From Shigella phage vB_SdyM_006, in sequence record MK295204: DNA of 64,000 nt, one strand, 5' to 3'. Positions 3,425 through 43,510 of this stretch are shown here, one piece after another. The notes under the pieces were generated by a model. The model was not told where the DNA came from and did not search any database. It saw only the letters and a program-made list of their open reading frames with translations. A program made the translations under genes and the position numbers. Numbering within the stretch: the first letter of the stretch is position 1; every line of letters starts with the position of its first letter.

Positions 3425-3670
3425 TTACCAACCTGTTATTTGTATTATATTAGAATCAAATTGGGTTCTTTTAACAGTTAACCCTTCGTTTTGTAATTTT
3501 GTAATAACTTTCTCTTGGACTCGGTATGAGATTTCACCTAGAGTCCAAGTTAAACTATCATACCCATGTTTAGATTTAAGCATTAATCGCTTTGCAATAT
3601 CATTAAACACCTGTTTAGATTCAAGCTCAACTAAGCTATCTTTAGAATCTTTTAATTTATCAATAAACAT
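3425..3670 (-). CDS. hypothetical protein (81 aa)
   Basis: ORF in leftward operon downstream of rnlB. Confidence 0.5.
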   Translation of the reverse strand: MFIDKLKDSKDSLVELESKQVFNDIAKRLMLKSKHGYDSLTWTLGEISYRVQEKVITKLQNEGLTVKRTQFDSNIIQITGW

Positions 3671-3677
3671 AATAAAC

Positions 3678-4682
3678 CTATTTTGTAATTAAATTGACCC
3701 AATCTTTTCGAATGAATTCTTGTATTTCTTTTTGAATAGATTTCTTGATTAATGCTGGGTCATCGTAATCAAGAATATCATGCCCGTCTTTTAACATATC
3801 TTTTAAAACATCCTGCATCATTAGACCTTGAACTTTGCCAAAATCTTTTGAAGATATTTCGCCAACATGGCTAATCACATTAGATAAACGTTGTGCAGTG
3901 ATATATGATGTAGAAAAATTAACCAGTTCTTGGTCGTCATTTGATAATTCTGGTGTAGGTCTAATTGTTTTTACTTTACCAGTTTCTTTGAACTTAGCAT
4001 TTTTACATTTAAAAATTACACGGCTTTTATTATTGAACTGTGTTGGAGTAATAGGTTTAAGAACATAACCTTCTGCAATATTTTCTGAACCTTCTTTTTG
4101 AGGACCAAATACGTGGGCATTTGCAGCCGGAATACCATGTTCTTTTACTATTGCATTAAATTCTGGGATTAAAGAATCAAATGAACGCTCTAAATTACTT
4201 AATTCATCAAAGTCACCAGTTAAAATAACAGGGCAGATTTTAAGATTTGTTTTAGAAGATAACATTCTTAAAAATAAAGCATCTACTAAATCACCATTAA
4301 TTAAAATATCAAATACCCAGAAATCTTTTTCTTCGTAATCTACTTCTCGTTGAATACCAGGGCCTGCATATTCGCCAAAGACTGTTAAAAGTTCTAAGTC
4401 AGGCATTGATTCTTTAACAGTATTAAACATGTCAAGAATGTTTTGTTTATAACGCTTTAAGATTAATTCGTATCCAAAAAATGCTTCAGATTCACCAATA
4501 AGATTAGTTCGTTTTGCACAAACAACATCTACACCATCACAAATAAAACTAAAATTAGTCCCATGTATTTTTTCTTGGGCAATCCAAGGAATACCTGGTG
4601 CTGTTTTTCCTTCAAAAAAGGCCTTTTCTACTAATTTAGTGTTATCAATATTTTCAATAGAATCATATTTAATAAATTGCAT
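3678..4682 (-). CDS. rnlB: RNA ligase 2
   Basis: 334 aa, same length as T4 Rnl2; nucleotidyltransferase motif EKIHGTN and co-linear similarity to T4 Rnl2. Confidence 0.9.
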   Translation of the reverse strand: MQFIKYDSIENIDNTKLVEKAFFEGKTAPGIPWIAQEKIHGTNFSFICDGVDVVCAKRTNLIGESEAFFGYELILKRYKQNILDMFNTVKESMPDLELLTVFGEYAGPGIQREVDYEEKDFWVFDILINGDLVDALFLRMLSSKTNLKICPVILTGDFDELSNLERSFDSLIPEFNAIVKEHGIPAANAHVFGPQKEGSENIAEGYVLKPITPTQFNNKSRVIFKCKNAKFKETGKVKTIRPTPELSNDDQELVNFSTSYITAQRLSNVISHVGEISSKDFGKVQGLMMQDVLKDMLKDGHDILDYDDPALIKKSIQKEIQEFIRKDWVNLITK

Positions 4683-28122: not shown

Positions 28123-28451
28123 TAAACCAACCTTAAAATGTCTTCATACTTCATAGAATTAACAGAAATAATTGATTCTGTTGTAATAGAACGCCATGCA
28201 TTAATCTCTGTATCAAATACTCGGATATATGATGGTGTTTTTGTTTCTTTTTCTGTTAAAGGTTTAGAACTATCTTGTTTAGGATGATGTTCTTCAGGAA
28301 TAATATCATAATCTAGTGTACAGCGAATAACTCTAATAGAACCATCTTTTTTAGTAAAAACAATTTCATTTTTACCATTATGTAGTAAGGTTTTAATTAA
28401 AGCAGTTAATTTAGCTTTTCTTTCTTCTGTAAGTTTCATTTTACACCACAA
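28122..28451 (-). CDS. hypothetical protein (109 aa)
   Basis: ORF between cd and gene 31. Confidence 0.45.
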   Translation of the reverse strand: MWCKMKLTEERKAKLTALIKTLLHNGKNEIVFTKKDGSIRVIRCTLDYDIIPEEHHPKQDSSKPLTEKETKTPSYIRVFDTEINAWRSITTESIISVNSMKYEDILRLV

Positions 28452-28987
28452 TAGTTAGTTATAGTAGACCAATCAATATGATTGAGATTAGAACGCTCAT
28501 ATTTAATAACTTCAATTCCAGAATCTAATAAAATCTGGTCCCATCCAGGAACATTGCGATCATATGTTTCTGCATAAACAAGTTTTTTAATACCAGATTG
28601 AGCAATCGCTTTAGCACAATCAGGACATGGCGATAATGTTACATACATTGTTCCGCCATCAATAGAAATACCATTACGAGCAGCAAAAATAATTGCATTT
28701 AATTCTGCATGGATTTCATGTTTAGAAGACCATGCATTATGTTGCTCACGGAATTCCATATTTAATCCTGTAATAGTTTTAGGACGAGGACCTGGAACAA
28801 TAATAGGTTTAGTCCAACCTTTTTCTGCTGCATGGTCGCAGCAATTGACGCCACCAGTAGGAGAACCATTATAACCAGTAGAAATGATTCTTCCACCTTT
28901 TTCAATAACAGCACCAACTTTCCAAGAAACACATTTAGATTCTTGAGAAATGATATAAGCAAGTTGGAGATATGTCGAAGCTTTCAT
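28436..28987 (-). CDS. cd: dCMP deaminase
   Basis: Zinc-binding deaminase motifs HAELNAI and PCPDCA. Confidence 0.9.
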   Translation of the reverse strand: MKASTYLQLAYIISQESKCVSWKVGAVIEKGGRIISTGYNGSPTGGVNCCDHAAEKGWTKPIIVPGPRPKTITGLNMEFREQHNAWSSKHEIHAELNAIIFAARNGISIDGGTMYVTLSPCPDCAKAIAQSGIKKLVYAETYDRNVPGWDQILLDSGIEVIKYERSNLNHIDWSTITNYCGVK

Positions 28988-29273
28988 TAGAACGATCCTC
29001 TATGTATTCTAAACATTTAGACGGAGTTTGAACCTGTACATCATAAGTATGGCTCTCATAATTGAATTCTGCTTTAACAACATATTTTAAAGCATGTTCT
29101 GGGTCCATTAATTGAATTAATGTATGGATTGTTGATTTCAAATTTAATTGAAGTTTCCAATCGCATATCTCAAATAAATTATTTTTATGCCATTGTTCAA
29201 TATACAAACGAAGAAACTCATCCAAATTTTCTGGAGATGCATGATTTAATTCTTTTACAACTTTAATACTCAT
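28935..29273 (-). CDS. hypothetical protein (112 aa)
   Basis: ORF. Confidence 0.45.
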   Translation of the reverse strand: MSIKVVKELNHASPENLDEFLRLYIEQWHKNNLFEICDWKLQLNLKSTIHTLIQLMDPEHALKYVVKAEFNYESHTYDVQVQTPSKCLEYIEDRSNESFDISPTCLYHFSRI

Positions 29274-29275
29274 TA

Positions 29276-29614
29276 TTATTCCTTAAGCATATACATATAA
29301 ACTAAATAGGTTGTGTTTCTAGTTTTTACAATAGCTACTCTATCATCTAACATTTTAAAGCTCTTTACAGTAGATGTACTAACATAAGTTTCATCTTTAA
29401 ATCGATTAGAAATATCACTGTAAATAAGTCCAGAAATACCAAATCTGGCTTCTAAATTAACTTCAAGAATATGCTCTAATTTATCAGACATTCGATGTCC
29501 GATAACAGCTAGAATAGCATCGCATGCACAAGCATTTCGAATAGAAGATAATTCAGATTCTTGGTTTTGCCCTATTTTATCTTCAATTGCGTTAATCAAT
29601 TTTTCTGTTTTCAT
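29276..29614 (-). CDS. hypothetical protein (112 aa)
   Basis: ORF directly downstream of DAHP synthase gene. Confidence 0.5.
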   Translation of the reverse strand: MKTEKLINAIEDKIGQNQESELSSIRNACACDAILAVIGHRMSDKLEHILEVNLEARFGISGLIYSDISNRFKDETYVSTSTVKSFKMLDDRVAIVKTRNTTYLVYMYMLKE

Positions 29615-30585
29615 TATAAGTCCACAATTAATTGTGCAGTGTCAAAGATATCAATACAAGGATCTGTAATTGATACACCCCATAAAAGATTATCGGAAAT
29701 CTTTTGATTACCTTCTATTAAATTACTTTCAATCATAAGCCCAAAAGTATTTTTAGCTTTAATTGCTTCTTTAGCTACATTAATTTGGTTTTTAAAATTA
29801 CCTTCACAATTAGCGTGTGAGCAGTCAACCATAACTGGAATCTCTAAAGACTCAATATATTCTTTAGAATAATTAGTTTTATATTCTTTACCGATTTTAC
29901 CACCACGTAAAATAATATGCGTATTTAGATTTCCACTTGCATAGATTTTACTAATCACGCCATCCATATTAATACCTAAATACGAATGTGGAAAAGCTGA
30001 ACTCTTCATAGCATCTAATGCTACTTGAATATCACCTGATGTTGAATTTTTAAATCCAACGGCCATAGGCAGCCCAGAAGCTATTTCACGATGAGTCTGT
30101 GATTCTGTTGTTCTAGCGCCGATAGCAGTCCAACTAAAAATACCAGATAGATACTTAATAGTAAATGGGTCTAAGACCTCTGTCGCCAAAGGAAGCCCAA
30201 GATTCAATAGTTCTATGCATAAGTGACGAGCAATTCTTAACCCTTCATCCATGTTAAACGAACCATTTAATTCAGGGTCATTAACAAGTCCTTTCCAACC
30301 TACGGTTGTACGTGGCTTTTCAAAATAGACCCGCATTACTAAAAGACATTTATCACCAATATGGTTTTGTAATCTTTTTAAATACTGCCCGTAAATGACC
30401 GCTTGTGCTGGGTCATGAATAGAACAAGGCCCAACAACGATCAGTTTTTTAGAACTCACGCCAGAAATAATATCTTTAACTTCTTGGCGATGATTTTCCA
30501 CTTGTTGCTTTAATTCATCAGAAATTGGCAACTCATCATGTAGCTCTTGTGGTGTGCTAATAGTTTTAACGTGCATGGATATCAT
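29614..30585 (-). CDS. DAHP synthase (type I alpha, AroG-like)
   Basis: LIVVGPCSIHD, MRVYFEKPRTTVGWKGLVNDP, IGARTTESQTHREIASGL match E. coli AroG nearly residue for residue; ATG with GAGG RBS. Confidence 0.85.
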   Translation of the reverse strand: MISMHVKTISTPQELHDELPISDELKQQVENHRQEVKDIISGVSSKKLIVVGPCSIHDPAQAVIYGQYLKRLQNHIGDKCLLVMRVYFEKPRTTVGWKGLVNDPELNGSFNMDEGLRIARHLCIELLNLGLPLATEVLDPFTIKYLSGIFSWTAIGARTTESQTHREIASGLPMAVGFKNSTSGDIQVALDAMKSSAFPHSYLGINMDGVISKIYASGNLNTHIILRGGKIGKEYKTNYSKEYIESLEIPVMVDCSHANCEGNFKNQINVAKEAIKAKNTFGLMIESNLIEGNQKISDNLLWGVSITDPCIDIFDTAQLIVDL

Positions 30586-30901
30586 ATTCCTCTGAATGGA
30601 TTAAATGAGTATCATCTTCGATTTTTAACCATAACGTTAATTTAAAAATACCTAAACGACAACTGATATCCCATTCAACATCTGATTTAAATAGTGTTTT
30701 GAAAATACGATTGACCTGATAAACAATAGCTTCATCAGTAGAAGCATAATCAGAACACATGGAAATTACGCCTTGAGCCATATCTGATATTGATAATTGC
30801 TTAGGAACTTTGTATACATTACACATAAAGAATTCTCCAAGTATATCCACCTTCTGGATATTCACCAATAATAAAATATTGAATACCTTTTGGCGATTCA
30901 A
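30566..30901 (-). CDS. hypothetical protein (111 aa)
   Basis: ORF. Confidence 0.45.
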   Translation of the reverse strand: MNRQKVFNILLLVNIQKVDILGEFFMCNVYKVPKQLSISDMAQGVISMCSDYASTDEAIVYQVNRIFKTLFKSDVEWDISCRLGIFKLTLWLKIEDDTHLIHSEEYDIHAR

Positions 30902-31030: not shown

Positions 31031-31222
31031 TTAACCTAAGTTTAAAACAACTTTTTTAATTTCGCAATCAGGGCCGAAACGAGTATCTATTGCATCTTTA
31101 GCTTCTTTGAATGATTTGTACAAACACAAATGTTCTTCTCGTTTTCGTGTAAAGATTCCTTGCGAAATAGAAATACCTTGAATCATAAAAGTATTTTTAC
31201 GAAAAATTGCAAATAATTCCAT
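31031..31222 (-). CDS. hypothetical protein (63 aa)
   Basis: ORF. Confidence 0.4.
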   Translation of the reverse strand: MELFAIFRKNTFMIQGISISQGIFTRKREEHLCLYKSFKEAKDAIDTRFGPDCEIKKVVLNLG

Positions 31223-32220
31223 TAAAAGTCACCTCTATTAACTTGCCAGCACTCAAGTCCAAGAACTCGCCACATATCAACTACTTGTTGACGGTCATCT
31301 AAAACATAAAGAACATTATACCTATTTGCAATGTGTTTGTAAAACAATTCTTTCTTAACAATAGAATCTTTTCTATGATCTTTATGACTACGCATAATAA
31401 GCTTAGAATATTTTACGCCGTGTTTGTTAAGCCATTTTTCGGTCCCAATACGATGCTCTTTTTCTTCACCTTCTTCGCGTCCAGATGTTAATAATATCTC
31501 AACACCTAAATCATGCATCATATTAATATGATTAATAACATTTTGACGAGGTGTATCTTTCCATAATTTATACAGGTCATGTGGGCTACGATGATTGTTG
31601 TCAGCAATAGTTCCATCAATATCAACAATAATAGCTTTAGGCAAATCTAAAGTCTTAGACCAATCAGGAACACCATGCAAGTAATGTTGCATTTTTTCAT
31701 AAAACGAATAAATTACTGCTGGAGGAACTGCTGATTCTCCACGGTACAAGTTTCGTTTATATAGTGTTTCTAAGTCTTCATCAAAATAAACCCAATCAAG
31801 CTGGTATTTAAAGGTTTTAGCAATATCTTTCCATTTATCTCGTGTTTTTGGATTTAAGTTTGTGTCTGACACAATAACAATGCGATGACCAGATTTATTA
31901 AGCCATTCAACTGCGAGCAATTGCTGTTTATCTGTAACTTCTCGCTCACGTTGTTTTGATGGCTTATATTCATTACGCTTGCAATTAAATAGTTCACAGC
32001 GTAAATCATCACGATTAACATTTAGAACAATACCTGGATTAGCAGATACCATTTCTTCAGCCCAAGTAGATTTACCAGAACCTGGTGCACCAACTGTCAT
32101 AATAATTTGTTTTACAAATTCTTCTTTTGGTTTTGGAATATCATAACCCATGTACTTAAGAACCTGTTCATTTTCAATATTAACCCAAGTAATATCATCA
32201 CTTTGCATTGGTACAAACAT
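31222..32220 (-). CDS. pseT: polynucleotide 5'-kinase / 3'-phosphatase
   Basis: P-loop GAPGSGKST, phosphatase DIDGT, C-terminal WRVLGLECWQV match T4 Pnk; true start probably internal. Confidence 0.9.
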   Translation of the reverse strand: MFVPMQSDDITWVNIENEQVLKYMGYDIPKPKEEFVKQIIMTVGAPGSGKSTWAEEMVSANPGIVLNVNRDDLRCELFNCKRNEYKPSKQREREVTDKQQLLAVEWLNKSGHRIVIVSDTNLNPKTRDKWKDIAKTFKYQLDWVYFDEDLETLYKRNLYRGESAVPPAVIYSFYEKMQHYLHGVPDWSKTLDLPKAIIVDIDGTIADNNHRSPHDLYKLWKDTPRQNVINHINMMHDLGVEILLTSGREEGEEKEHRIGTEKWLNKHGVKYSKLIMRSHKDHRKDSIVKKELFYKHIANRYNVLYVLDDRQQVVDMWRVLGLECWQVNRGDF

Positions 32221-41005: not shown

Positions 41006-41857
41006 CTATACACTGAAAGGGTATTTAATAGCAGGGTGATATTGATAATCTTGTACTTCAAAATCATCTACAGTGACCCAGGTTTCAATATCTTCTAATG
41101 ATCTGATATTATCATTAATAATAAGTTTAGGTGCATTAAACGGCGTCCTAGACACATGCTCTGGGACTAAAGATAATTGGTCTTCATAGATATGGGCATT
41201 TGTTATCTTATGAAACACTTTACCAGGTTTATTTGCTGTAATCTGGGCCATTAAATGTAAAAGCACATAACACTGAATCATATTAAAATTTAAACCTAAT
41301 GGGACATCACATGATCTTTGGTATGAAGTTAAATATAAAGTCCCATTAACGAGAGAAAAATTATGGGTATGCATACAAGGACGTAAACAACCTAAGTCAA
41401 ATTCTCCTGGATTCCAGAACGTTAGGATTTCTCCACGATCATCAGTTCCTTCACTTAAATTATCATAGATTTTTCTGAGTTGGTCAATAGTGCTATTAGG
41501 TCCTTGCCATTGTCGTCCTTGAACACCATAAACACGGCCCATATCGTCTTCACCTTTGCGATGAGGGTTATTTAGCCATGCTTGATTTTCATTAGCGTTT
41601 GCATTCCATGTATTACAACCAATTTCACGAAATTGCGCTGCATTGTCGTAACCACGAAGATATCCTAACAGTTCAGCAATAGCAGCTTTATAAAAGCTTT
41701 TACGAGTTGTATCAATTGGGAATTCAGAATATTCTAGGTCGGCATTAATAATAACACGACAAAATTTTCCAGTTCGTTTATTATATACGTCTTGGCCTTC
41801 ATTATAAATCTTTTTTAATAATTGTTGATACTGATTCTTTTCTAAGATCTTTTCCAT
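41006..41857 (-). CDS. td: thymidylate synthase family protein, uninterrupted
   Basis: [29 protein letters not shown] align with ThyA; active-site region reads LRPCMH not the usual PCH; position between frd and nrdA. Confidence 0.8.
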
Positions 41858-42496: not shown

Positions 42497-42890
42497 TATT
42501 CAAGTCCTCATTTATTAAAGGATAAAGACAAATAATACGGCCATTTTTTCTAAAGATACCTTTAACTGTAATTAAGTTATTTTCAATTTTAGTATGTCCT
42601 TCAGAAATAGATTTAAAAAGACGACATAAACATGTGTCCATTTTAACAGCTCGTTTATCTGTGATATCTGAATTTGTCAAATATAAATCGTGTCCATTAC
42701 CGCCATATTCTCTATCAATTTTATAATTTTTTAATTCGTAGACACCATGCGGCATAACATCAACATGTTCTTTTCGTATTAAAGATTTATACCCATCGAT
42801 AGTAAGGTCTTTAAAGAATAAGAAATGTTCTTTAGGTGCTTCTACAAGAACCCAATTATTTTGTTCTTCAAATCTGTGAATTAGTTGCAT
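42489..42890 (-). CDS. hypothetical protein, tandem paralog (133 aa)
   Basis: See previous feature. Confidence 0.5.
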   Translation of the reverse strand: MQLIHRFEEQNNWVLVEAPKEHFLFFKDLTIDGYKSLIRKEHVDVMPHGVYELKNYKIDREYGGNGHDLYLTNSDITDKRAVKMDTCLCRLFKSISEGHTKIENNLITVKGIFRKNGRIICLYPLINEDLNNG

Positions 42891-43510
42891 ACTCGTTCCA
42901 GTATAGTTTCTTCGATATAATTTTTAATATCGATATCGTTAAAATAATCAGTAACATATAAATGAGATTCTACTAACTTAAATTTAGCGTATCCACTCAA
43001 ATATTGCCCAATAGATTTATCTAAAAATGTATCTGCAGGATTTGTATCTGCATGTAAAACAGAAGTCCAAATAATCCTATCACAAAATTCAAATGAAGCT
43101 TCGATTAAACGTTTACCACCTATAATAGAAACTAAGTTCTTAGGGTTCTTGTTGTTAAATGTTGGAGCAACTTCGGCTTCTTTACAGATTTGTTCTAATT
43201 CATAAGGACCCCATGGTCCTACTATTTCTTTATCAGCAGGTTTTCCGTCTAATGAAAGTAGTTCACCTCTAGGGTCATCAACAAGAACAATAGAAATTCG
43301 GTCTTTCAATTTAGGCATAGACATAAATGTTTTAGGGCCCATGATAACATACGAATCAATTTGAGACGTAACAGGAACCATTCTAGGAGCTATAGTTCTT
43401 GATCTGAAGTTATCCATATCTTTTTTAATACGTGGCCAAGGAAGGGTTCCTTTGAATCCTATTCCGTATCCTTTCTGGTCGTATTGAGTTGCAAAAACGG
43501 TCTGAATCAT
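42881..43510 (-). CDS. frd: dihydrofolate reductase
   Basis: GFKGTLPW and VIMGPKTF resemble DHFR motifs; adjacent to td. Confidence 0.75.
   Translation of the reverse strand: MIQTVFATQYDQKGYGIGFKGTLPWPRIKKDMDNFRSRTIAPRMVPVTSQIDSYVIMGPKTFMSMPKLKDRISIVLVDDPRGELLSLDGKPADKEIVGPWGPYELEQICKEAEVAPTFNNKNPKNLVSIIGGKRLIEASFEFCDRIIWTSVLHADTNPADTFLDKSIGQYLSGYAKFKLVESHLYVTDYFNDIDIKNYIEETILERVCN

Follow-up and report, generated by a model that had tools for sequence, protein, structure and literature searches.

A phage type I-alpha DAHP synthase with a remodelled effector site in the cd-pseT interval and its possible role in prephenate supply

The enzyme and its locus

The window, by which we mean the entire 64,000-nucleotide stretch of Shigella phage vB_SdyM_006 (MK295204) analysed here, carries a gene for a DAHP synthase (DAHPS) on its minus strand. 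It lies between pseT (polynucleotide kinase/phosphatase; 31222..32220, minus strand) at the upstream edge of the interval and cd (dCMP deaminase; 28436..28987, minus strand) at the downstream edge, as an earlier note on this DNA had proposed: profiles, a structural model and the flanking genes agree on a type I-alpha DAHPS at this position. The longest open reading frame encodes 323 aa (29614..30585, minus strand) and is assigned by profile, PHROG, residue and model evidence. Translation more likely begins at the second ATG, at 30576, which would give a coding sequence of 320 aa (MHVKTIS...; 29614..30576, minus strand), because a Shine-Dalgarno-like GAGGA motif (30588..30592, minus strand, thus read from 30592 to 30588) is spaced 11 nt from this ATG and 2 nt from the first one at 30585, and because the start of a Providencia phage homologue aligns with the second position. 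The motif was read from the sequence, its function is presumed, and it sits within the 3′ end of the ORF upstream of DAHPS. The 320-aa version is also the GenBank start of this DAHPS, the one annotated in the phages SJ_PmiM and Pm5461, and that of an identical protein (P0001). Scans of the DAHPS surroundings for promoters, terminators, T4 late motifs and MotA motifs returned nothing over background. One sigma-70-like match (11/12) was seen within the 3′ end of pseT.

On the downstream side, the DAHPS stop codon TAA (29614-29616) shares bases with the ATG of a 112-aa ORF (29276..29614, minus strand; PHROG 25745/2063) in the arrangement TAATG. The idea that this small resident gene of the pseT-cd interval could be a partner of DAHPS is rejected on phyletic grounds: it is missing beside DAHPS in Mosigvirus, Kanagawavirus and Marfavirus, and it adjoins cd in JD18, a phage without DAHPS. 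Its occurrence does not follow that of DAHPS, as that of a dedicated partner would.

That the ORF encodes an intact type I-alpha DAHPS is confirmed by sequence matches far beyond chance: PF00793 at 6e-67 (225.7 bits; cut-off 25.5), TIGR00034 (aroFGH) at 389.6 bits (cut-off 173.2), NF009395 at 405 (cut-off 343) and PHROG 5045 (phospho-2-dehydro-3-deoxyheptonate aldolase) over the full length at 3.1e-158 and 527 bits. The AF2 model (pLDDT 93.6) predicts a (beta/alpha)8 barrel of the I-alpha type, and Foldseek aligns it at TM 0.91-0.94 to the type I-alpha structures 3TQK, 1KFL, 1N8F and 1HFB. The metal ligands of AroG, Cys61, His268, Glu302 and Asp326 (AroG numbering), correspond to C54, H257, E286 and D308 of the 323-aa ORF and are invariant across the phage homologues aligned. 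The residues checked that bind PEP and erythrose-4-phosphate (E4P), namely R92, K97-P-R-T100, G163-A-R165, K186 and R234 (AroG numbering), are identical, and no metal- or PEP-binding residue is lost. Among the catalytic residues checked, only position 304 differs from AroG (His in AroG, Asn in AroF). The earlier description of a core matching almost residue for residue therefore fits the catalytic residues checked but not the protein overall, which is 46% identical to AroG and 48% to AroF. Taken together, the alignments predict a catalytically competent type I-alpha enzyme.

The window is 98.9% identical to the Proteus Bragavirus SJ_PmiM. In comparison with Pm5461, the dN/dS of DAHPS is 0.11 (dS 0.79), and the gene is under purifying selection; with a GC3 of 23%, its composition is fully phage-like. 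A homologue is found in 212 phage records, and in T4-like phages it always sits between pseT and cd. What had been noted as an unusual insertion is a conserved accessory gene at a fixed locus in many genera, and annotations of it already exist in about 200 genomes of T4-like phages.

An AroF-like clade with an altered effector region

The earlier note had called the enzyme AroG-type. It is instead AroF-like: the AroG-specific model NF006723 scores 326 and does not reach its cut-off of 568, the nearest sequences in the PDB and in the tree are of the AroF kind, and position 211 (AroG numbering) is Gly as in AroF, where AroG has Ser. Its best PDB and database neighbours, the Tyr-sensitive AroF of E. 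coli (PDB 6AGM) and AroF-like enzymes of Pasteurellaceae, are 48-53% identical to it and have the same fold, metal ligands, KPRT motif and PEP/E4P residues, in addition to Gly211. The phage enzyme differs from this group by an N terminus shorter by 11-14 residues, a C terminus shorter by about 10, three internal deletions, and I, K and P in place of the effector contacts P150, Q151 and S180; it is also phage-encoded, with a phage codon composition. Against AroG, too, it is shorter at both ends, as noted earlier, by about 10 residues each, with internal deletions making up the remaining length difference.

In a neighbour-joining tree, the DAHPS sequences of T4-like phages form one clade beside AroF-like bacteria. 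They have 48-52 residues ahead of the Cys61 equivalent, compared with 59-65 in bacteria, and their N termini are 10-15 residues shorter than those of their bacterial neighbours. The clade is marked by the substitutions P150I, Q151K, S180P, A202S and F209Y (AroG numbering), as seen in an alignment of T4-like-phage sequences that took in three metagenomic rows. Apart from P0023, with R at 151, and the outlying metagenomic P0025, with Pro retained at 150, this remodelled effector region is strictly conserved within the phage clade, whereas all bacterial neighbours in the alignment retain P-Q-S at 150/151/180.

What could these changes mean for the regulation of the enzyme? In AroG and AroF, Q151/Q152 and S180/S181 touch the main chain of the bound inhibitor, P150L and S180F lead to feedback resistance, and changes at the P150, Q151 and S180 positions abolish Phe/Tyr inhibition in engineered alleles (PMC9529685). 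The phage clade is naturally changed at three positions that are altered in such alleles (P150L, S180F, Q151 variants), although its residues I, K and P differ from those tested. The feedback site for aromatic amino acids, comprising P150, Q151, S180 and the N-terminal segment of the adjoining subunit, is thus not retained. A loss of Phe/Tyr/Trp feedback is plausible because the short N terminus is joined by replacements of P150, Q151 and S180 across the whole clade, which gives the earlier suspicion of deregulation a stronger basis than the N terminus alone. The conservation of the remodelled region could also point to a new ligand instead of simple deregulation.

Association with U32 and chorismate mutase

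In SJ_PmiM, a gene for a U32 protein (SJ_07; PF01136 at 6.8e-11, 42.3 against a cut-off of 22.4) is followed by a chorismate mutase gene (PF01817 at 2.7e-12) and then by the thymidylate-synthase-like 5-hydroxy-dCMP (5hodCMP) synthase, with UDP-arabinose genes adjoining. From the near-identical genomes we infer the same U32/chorismate mutase cluster for the present phage, outside the 64-kb window. DAHPS is present in 212 records and U32 in 221; the union is 242, so that 191 of the 212 carry both, a co-occurrence that partly reflects shared ancestry. DAHPS, U32 and chorismate mutase occur together in all 7 Proteus records. Where U32 is missing from a T4-like genome examined (T4, T2, T6 and JD18), DAHPS is missing too. 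Chorismate mutase abuts U32 in 14 of 16 T4-like loci, while DAHPS lies 60-100 kb away from the U32 cluster in these phages. Prephenate dehydratase and prephenate dehydrogenase are both absent from the phages with chorismate mutase.

There are exceptions in both directions. DAHPS is missing from RB69 and mar005P1, which do have U32, and the U32 junction of RB69 and JS09 lacks chorismate mutase; neither enzyme is therefore obligatory. RB69 gp49 and its JS09 homologue, which occupy the place of chorismate mutase, were considered as candidates for this enzyme and rejected, as they gave no Pfam match and no BLAST or tblastn similarity. Conversely, 21 records have a DAHPS homologue without U32; they comprise 4 Acinetobacter phages, Aeromonas HJ05, Pseudomonas Y13, contigs from faeces and incomplete genomes.

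Beyond the T4-like phages, the same genes meet in unrelated viral contigs, whose U32 proteins are 41-58% identical; most of those inspected have PolIII-alpha replicases, and some exceed 190 kb. Chorismate mutase directly follows U32 in six of them (L065, L068, L069, L070, L073, L079). In six more, DAHPS is the neighbour: as a bare type I-beta enzyme directly after U32 (L026, L047), or as a DAHPS-chorismate mutase fusion about 0.6 kb from it (L054, L058, L059, L061). Three of the fusions (L054, L059, L061) combine DAHP_synth_1 and CM_2 within one protein and share the two-domain make-up of bacterial bifunctional type I-beta DAHPS/chorismate mutases (NF009239 type), in contrast to the window enzyme, which is type I-alpha and unfused. 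As read from their sequences, the fusions are independent evidence that phages pair DAHPS and chorismate mutase near U32. An IMG/VR search for loci related to the type I-beta DAHPS of L026 found no relatives. These neighbourhoods, those of the T4-like phages and the co-occurrence in 191 of 212 records link U32 genetically to the synthesis of prephenate.

The phage U32 protein is a remote homologue of RlhA, TrhP, UbiU and UbiV: pairwise BLAST and phmmer against the four E. coli proteins gave nothing significant and only profile methods matched (hhalign 96%, E 3.7e-9). C169 and C176 of RlhA have their counterparts in C204 and C210 of the phage protein, and the phage family has 10 invariant Cys. 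The bacterial proteins act on 23S rRNA (RlhA, ho5C2501), tRNA (TrhP, ho5U34) and in anaerobic ubiquinone synthesis (UbiU/UbiV), and have in common with the phage module a U32 Fe-S protein and a dependence, putative in the phage, on the aro pathway to prephenate. The formation of 5-hydroxycytidine by RlhA depends on Fe-S clusters and prephenate (PMC5727448), and prephenate is the oxygen donor in U32-dependent anaerobic hydroxylation (PMC10990095). RlhA hydroxylates C5 of cytosine, the chemistry that 5-hydroxycytosine requires, and the bacterial U32 route parallels an O2-dependent enzyme with the same product (PMC5727448, PMC6599085, PMC10990095). The phage situation differs in that bacterial prephenate comes from housekeeping genes, while the virus carries its own entry and branch-point enzymes; the phage U32 protein also has an extra C-terminal CX4CX3CX2C, and its putative substrate is a deoxynucleotide or DNA.

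5-Hydroxycytosine is predicted for Bragaviruses and their relatives, in common with RB69, whose cluster for arabinosyl-5-hydroxycytosine spans gp45-gp55 (PMC13326640). There, the thymidylate-synthase-like enzyme alone makes 5hodCMP aerobically, gp48 of RB69 uses O2, and the U32 homologue gp50 is without an established role, guessed by the authors to be a 'sugar or heterocycle reductase' (PMC13326640). The published pathway contains no DAHPS, chorismate mutase or prephenate and leaves gp50 unexplained, and RB69 itself has neither of the two enzymes. Our literature search found no functional study of a phage DAHPS and no paper tying prephenate or U32 to phage hydroxycytosine, within a coverage that did not extend to He et al. 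(HY126) and the LC53/92A1 study.

Prephenate supply weighed against other roles

We lean, by slightly more than even confidence, towards the view that a feedback-insensitive DAHPS and a chorismate mutase supply prephenate for U32-dependent hydroxylation in the phage. DAHPS would condense PEP and E4P to DAHP and, most likely, raise the shikimate flux of the host regardless of Phe, Tyr and Trp levels. Host enzymes would carry this flux to chorismate, which the phage chorismate mutase would convert onward; the wanted product would be prephenate and not amino acids or folate. By analogy with RlhA, TrhP and UbiU/V, the U32 Fe-S enzyme of the 5-hydroxycytosine/arabinose DNA-hypermodification cluster would then take the oxygen for a hydroxylation from prephenate, independently of O2 and plausibly at C5 of cytosine, and so back up the O2/flavin-dependent 5hodCMP synthase in anoxic hosts. 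The proposal builds on the identity of the enzyme, its intact active site and fold, purifying selection, the altered effector site, co-occurrence, gene neighbourhoods and fusions, from which we infer feedback insensitivity, the supply of prephenate and the U32 reaction. Whether the scheme extends further, such that T4-like and other large phages run their own prephenate line (a feedback-blind DAHPS with or without chorismate mutase, sometimes fused) into an O2-free U32 5-hydroxylation of cytosine or another base, we judge to fall a little short of an even chance.

But could this simply be an auxiliary metabolic gene of the general kind, whose deregulated product increases aromatic amino acids, or cofactors derived from chorismate in general, so that phage proteins can be made once host gene expression is shut off? 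This is the reading given in genome papers (PMC11845039), and it agrees with the intact enzyme, the altered feedback site and the 21 records with DAHPS and no U32. We nevertheless consider it unlikely: it leaves unexplained why DAHPS occurs only in U32/5-hydroxycytosine lineages among the T4-like genomes examined, why chorismate mutase comes without prephenate dehydratase or dehydrogenase, and why non-orthologous DAHPS types and fusions lie beside U32 in unrelated contigs. Folate had been the earlier suggestion, with extra chorismate feeding pABA and folate for phage DHFR, thymidylate synthase and dCMP-modifying enzymes. The window does hold frd (42881..43510) and td (41006..41857), as the note had observed, and the 5hodCMP synthase is a member of the folate-dependent thymidylate-synthase family. 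That enzyme is, however, reported to use flavin and O2 (PMC13326640). Folate would be needed catalytically and not stoichiometrically, frd and td are accompanied by no DAHPS in T4, T2, T6 and JD18, and the chorismate mutase in the same phage genome would compete for chorismate and draw it towards prephenate; the folate reading is thus disfavoured and very improbable.

Two further readings look to the sugar side. DAHPS-bearing phages overlap with arabinosylating ones, and a direct role in UDP-arabinose synthesis was initially suspected; it was rejected, since the RB69 and NAR 2026 papers give a full route from Ru5P to UDP-Araf without DAHPS, and RB69 lacks the gene. An indirect role, in which consumption of E4P pulls transketolase and transaldolase towards pentose phosphates and on through ribulose-5-P and arabinose-5-P to UDP-arabinose and nucleotides, would suit the co-occurrence of DAHPS with arabinose-5-P isomerase and UDP-arabinose genes, as well as L026, where genes for a SIS isomerase and a sugar kinase share a block with the type I-beta DAHPS. 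It is improbable: it has no role for chorismate mutase, the gene most tightly attached to U32, the DAHPS-chorismate mutase fusions point to a product of the aromatic branch, and RB69 arabinosylates without DAHPS. Finally, the enzyme might join PEP to arabinose-5-phosphate or another sugar phosphate, like KDO8P synthase, to make a new DNA-decorating sugar. KDO8P synthase belongs to the same family, and the phages encode arabinose-5-P isomerase, whose step precedes it in bacteria, but KPRT and the other E4P/PEP ligands checked are of the DAHPS type, KDO8PS models score far lower for the phage type I-beta enzyme (63 against 237 bits), and arabinose is the sole sugar reported on these DNAs. We give this reading hardly any credence.

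Seen by itself, the DAHPS gene is nothing out of the ordinary, an accessory gene with existing annotations; its interest lies in its context. The putatively feedback-altered enzyme is a natural variant of possible use in metabolic engineering, and Mosigvirus, Marfavirus, Bragavirus and Winklervirus, which include candidates for phage therapy, carry the module. If the prephenate proposal is true, it would account for three unexplained phage genes, those of DAHPS, of chorismate mutase and of the U32 'peptidase' (RB69 gp50), which is very highly conserved. Viral DNA would join RNA and quinones among the molecules to which prephenate, in a recently discovered role, donates oxygen. DNA hypermodification would gain its first hydroxylation that depends on prephenate, an anaerobic twin of the flavin/O2-dependent 5hodCMP synthase. 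A further prediction would be that the 5-hydroxycytosine-arabinose modification protecting the DNA of gut phages is maintained without oxygen.

The DAHP synthase gene and its interval

The window is Bragavirus DNA, from a T4-like phage of Proteus: over the 3.9 kb that surround the DAHP synthase (DAHPS) gene, identity is 98.9% to Proteus phage SJ_PmiM (MW367898.1, in which window position w falls at 91245 - w) and 98.5% to phiP4-3. A database protein identical over the 320-aa DAHPS (P0001, 100%) carries the NCBI source name 'Shigella phage vB_SdyM_006'; the close genomes in the phage collection are all Proteus phages. The longest DAHPS ORF (29614-30585, minus strand, 323 aa) lies between pseT (31222-32220, minus) and cd (28436-28987, minus). 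Three small ORFs precede it and two ORFs of 112 aa follow, the whole group tightly packed on the minus strand, and its stop overlaps the start of the next ORF (TAATG). It has two in-frame ATGs, and a GAGGA at 30592-30588 precedes them by 2 nt and 11 nt, respectively. Because of this spacing, and because the second ATG is the start used in GenBank records and the position at which a Providencia phage homologue begins, translation likely starts at 30576, giving a 320-aa product.

The top sigma-70-like match of the region (31343-31315, minus strand; TTTACA-17-TATAAT, 11/12) sits within the pseT 3' end, about 100 nt upstream of the string of small ORFs, DAHPS and cd, and may be an early promoter; the total count of such matches in the region is not above shuffled expectation. 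The second 112-aa ORF (28935-29273, minus) shares 53 nt with the start of cd, into which it appears to have been extended, since its 94-aa homologue in Pm5461 ends at the cd start.

That the ORF encodes a DAHP synthase, as an earlier note had read from the sequence alone, is confirmed by profiles, active-site residues and a fold model. It matches Pfam DAHP_synth_1 (6e-67), TIGR00034 aroFGH (389.6 bits, cut-off 173.2) and NF009395 (405 bits, cut-off 343), and falls below the cut-offs of the AroG (326/568) and AroH (345/463) equivalog models. The closest solved structure is E. coli AroF (6AGM, 8e-93), and aligned identity is 47.5% to AroF, 45.7% to AroG and 41.3% to AroH. All four metal ligands (C61, H268, E302 and D326, AroG numbering) and all substrate residues checked (R92, E96, K97-P-R-T100, G163-A-R165, K186, R234 and S267), as known from AroG structures, are identical. 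The AlphaFold model, based on 30 homologues (pLDDT 93.6), superposes on solved type I-alpha enzymes with TM 0.91-0.94, and the phage protein is very probably an active DAHPS. Judged by a dN/dS of 0.11 at dS 0.79 against the Pm5461 orthologue and a GC3 of 23%, the gene is an old, selected phage resident and no recent capture.

The gene in itself is known and annotated. In a tblastn search of 50,697 phage records, 212 gave a homologue. The majority are T4-like phages with Escherichia, Klebsiella, Shigella, Proteus, Serratia, Enterobacter, Providencia, Edwardsiella or Erwinia as hosts; most of the homologues already carry a DAHP synthase annotation, and a family exists for them (PHROG 5045). They have been noted in passing as putative aromatic-amino-acid auxiliary genes (PMC11845039, PMC8022965), and we found no functional work on them in the searchable literature. 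The gene always occupies the pseT-cd interval in Bragavirus, Mosigvirus, Kanagawavirus, Marfavirus, Winklervirus, one Providencia phage and one metagenomic T4-like contig. Mosigvirus is cleanly polymorphic for the gene's presence, and in mar005P1 cd.2 is followed directly by cd. Homing or intron endonuclease genes inserted in the interval in the relatives PM2 and WFbE185 (records H4 and H119) show it to be a hot spot of gene gain and loss.

The first 112-aa ORF (29276-29614, minus) had been proposed as a partner of DAHPS, and the wider distribution contradicts this. Its homologues lie downstream of DAHPS in Pm5461, PSTCR6 and CBH8, but in JS09, PEi26 and PWKp16 DAHPS directly adjoins cd, and in Klebsiella phage JD18 the family stands beside cd in a genome without DAHPS. 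Among Klebsiella records, 128 give weak tblastn matches to the family and 25 have DAHPS. On this distribution, the ORF is a resident of the interval and no dedicated partner.

A remodelled effector site

In a neighbour-joining distance tree of about 30 sequences, with no bootstrap, so that clades are a matter of topology, all T4-like phage enzymes and their metagenomic relatives form one clade beside AroF-like enzymes; the nearest bacterial sequences are from Pasteurellaceae (about 50-53% identity). Clade members all have 48-52 residues ahead of the catalytic Cys, versus 59-65 in the bacterial neighbours. All T4-like phage sequences and metagenomic P0003 and P0005 carry I-K at positions 150-151; metagenomic P0023 has R at 151, and P0025, just outside the clade, keeps Pro at 150. 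P180, S202 and Y209 are common to the T4-like sequences and all four metagenomic proteins. Q151 and S180 are retained in every bacterial neighbour and in the E. coli isoenzymes AroF, AroG and AroH, and P150 in all of these but AroH (Gly). In AroG/AroF, Q151/Q152 and S180/S181 bind the inhibitor main chain, P150L and S180F are feedback-resistant and A202T is partially so (PMC9529685).

Since the changes fall at known effector-contact and feedback-resistance sites, it is reasonable to infer that the phage enzyme has escaped control by Phe, Tyr and Trp, and outright feedback insensitivity is fairly probable. The earlier note had suggested deregulation from terminal truncation; the substitutions at 150, 151 and 180 support the same inference on better evidence. 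Within the phage clade the remodelled stretch (EVLDPFTIKYL...ASGLPM) does not itself vary, so it possibly serves a different ligand.

Divergent DAHPS homologues without U32 also occur outside the T4-like DAHPS/U32 group, in Aeromonas phage HJ05 (79 kb; locus L013, 3342-4505) and Pseudomonas phage Y13 (record H304). The HJ05 enzyme has A, H and P in place of P150, Q151 and S180, and a long N-terminal extension.

Pairing with U32 and chorismate mutase

Outside the 64-kb window, the near-identical SJ_PmiM genome carries a cluster of an NTP-transferase/kinase like RB69 gp52:53, a HAD phosphatase, a kinase-like protein, a Peptidase_U32 protein (SJ_07; 6.8e-11, above the Pfam cut-off), a type II chorismate mutase (SJ_09; 2.7e-12) and a thymidylate-synthase homologue (SJ_10). 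Clusters of this type have been assigned arabinosylated 5-hydroxycytosine as product, with Bragaviruses among the predicted producers; the thymidylate-synthase homologue, RB69 gp48, is a 5-hydroxy-dCMP synthase that depends on O2 and flavin, and for the U32 homologue gp50 there is only a guess, 'sugar or heterocycle reductase' (PMC13326640). That paper makes no mention of DAHPS, chorismate mutase, shikimate or prephenate.

Profile comparison places the phage U32 in the family as a remote yet genuine member: against RlhA/TrhP/UbiU/UbiV, hhalign reports 96% probability (E 3.7e-9, 207 columns), C204 and C210 align with the signature cysteines, and ten Cys are invariant in 18 phage homologues down to 50% identity. 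Besides the U32 cysteines, it has a C-terminal CX4CX3CX2C motif. The protein (SJ_PmiM 3485-4651, locus L016) is 82-89% identical across genera where DAHPS is about 58%, and at least 80% identical in all 221 phage records carrying it, a degree of conservation that is unusually high for a protein without assigned function. Bacterial U32 Fe-S proteins are O2-independent, prephenate-dependent hydroxylases: RlhA, which depends on the prephenate pathway, makes 5-hydroxycytidine in 23S rRNA (PMC5727448), TrhP is likewise prephenate-dependent in forming tRNA ho5U (PMC6599085), and prephenate donates the oxygen in the anaerobic, UbiU/V-dependent hydroxylation steps of ubiquinone synthesis (PMC10990095).

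Co-occurrence was assessed with a chimeric DAHPS+U32 query against each protein alone. The chimera matched 434 places in 242 records; DAHPS alone was found in 212 and U32 alone in 221, so that 191 hold both. The enterobacterial T4-like DAHPS clade counts 197 records at the DNA level, and of the few that lack U32 at least one is a partial genome, a record of 59 kb. Each of the seven Proteus records carries the full set of DAHPS, U32 and chorismate mutase, and the T4-like genomes examined without U32 (T4, T2, T6, JD18) also lack DAHPS. Serratia phage LC53, for which arabinosyl-5-hydroxycytosine is reported, carries DAHPS. Chorismate mutase directly adjoins U32 in 14 of 16 T4-like loci, with inverted order in one (L029), whose sample also yields a pseT-DAHPS-cd contig.

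Independent lineages were sought in IMG/VR and metagenomes through U32 homologues 41-58% identical; most of the contigs inspected carry PolIII-alpha replicases, and some reach 190-290 kb. In L026 and L047 a bare type I-beta DAHPS core (GSCSVES, KPRT and DPSH motifs, no regulatory domain) directly follows U32. In four others, N-terminal DAHP_synth_1 and C-terminal CM_2 are fused in a single protein about 0.6 kb from U32 (L054 6329-7390, L058 3-968, L059 6312-7376, L061 6399-7430), with SIS and sugar-kinase genes also close by. In six (L065, L068, L069, L070, L073, L079) a full-length CM_2 protein directly follows U32. A non-orthologous DAHPS type and three gene architectures thus converge on the same pairing with U32, for which phylogenetic inertia is an insufficient explanation.

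The supply genes are nonetheless accessory, since DAHPS is missing from RB69 and mar005P1, which have U32, and there is no chorismate mutase at the Mosigvirus U32 junction. Conversely, 21 records have a DAHPS homologue but no U32, including four Acinetobacter phages. As Acinetobacter is an obligate aerobe, the absence of U32 there would fit an anaerobic role for it, yet leaves the DAHPS of these phages unexplained. In three large-phage loci (L025, L031, L032), a divergent U32 lies directly beside genes for PolIII-alpha replicase, dCMP deaminase, thymidylate kinase, a UDG-like protein and radical-SAM proteins, which suggests that U32-dependent modification of nucleotides or DNA extends well past the T4-like phages.

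A proposed prephenate supply and its rivals

We propose that DAHPS, the entry enzyme controlling flux, and chorismate mutase, the branch-point enzyme, would together lead to prephenate, itself the wanted product and used by U32. The roughly 91 kb of SJ_PmiM examined, where most ORFs are unannotated, show no annotated prephenate dehydratase or dehydrogenase, and none is flagged in the viral loci. Prephenate as the wanted end product is the simplest reading. Four other roles could be served by the same enzyme: a generic boost to aromatics, an erythrose-4-phosphate sink for pentose supply, folate supply, as the earlier note had it, or a reaction on an altered substrate. Against each of them the weightiest point is the chorismate mutase evidence. 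The earlier mechanism holds in part: the loss of feedback stands as reasonable, the folate role is disfavoured, and the 112-aa ORF is no dedicated partner. On balance, the gene context leads us to favour DAHPS as the supplier of prephenate for U32.

By analogy with its bacterial relatives, U32 may give access to the 5-hydroxyl without O2, alongside the O2/flavin enzyme; that it makes 5-hydroxycytosine anaerobically is a more tentative proposal. Such a pair would mirror the O2-independent and O2-dependent routes of the hosts, TrhP versus TrhO and UbiU/V versus UbiI/H/F. With about 51,000 cytosines computed for a 164-kb genome at about 31% G+C, and an assumed burst size of 100-200, 5-10 million hydroxylations would be needed per cell. 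The demand for prephenate is possibly large, and a supply blind to Phe/Tyr/Trp feedback would make sense. The gene context, with U32 and chorismate mutase, points to a more interesting and testable role for the phage DAHPS than the mechanism first suggested.
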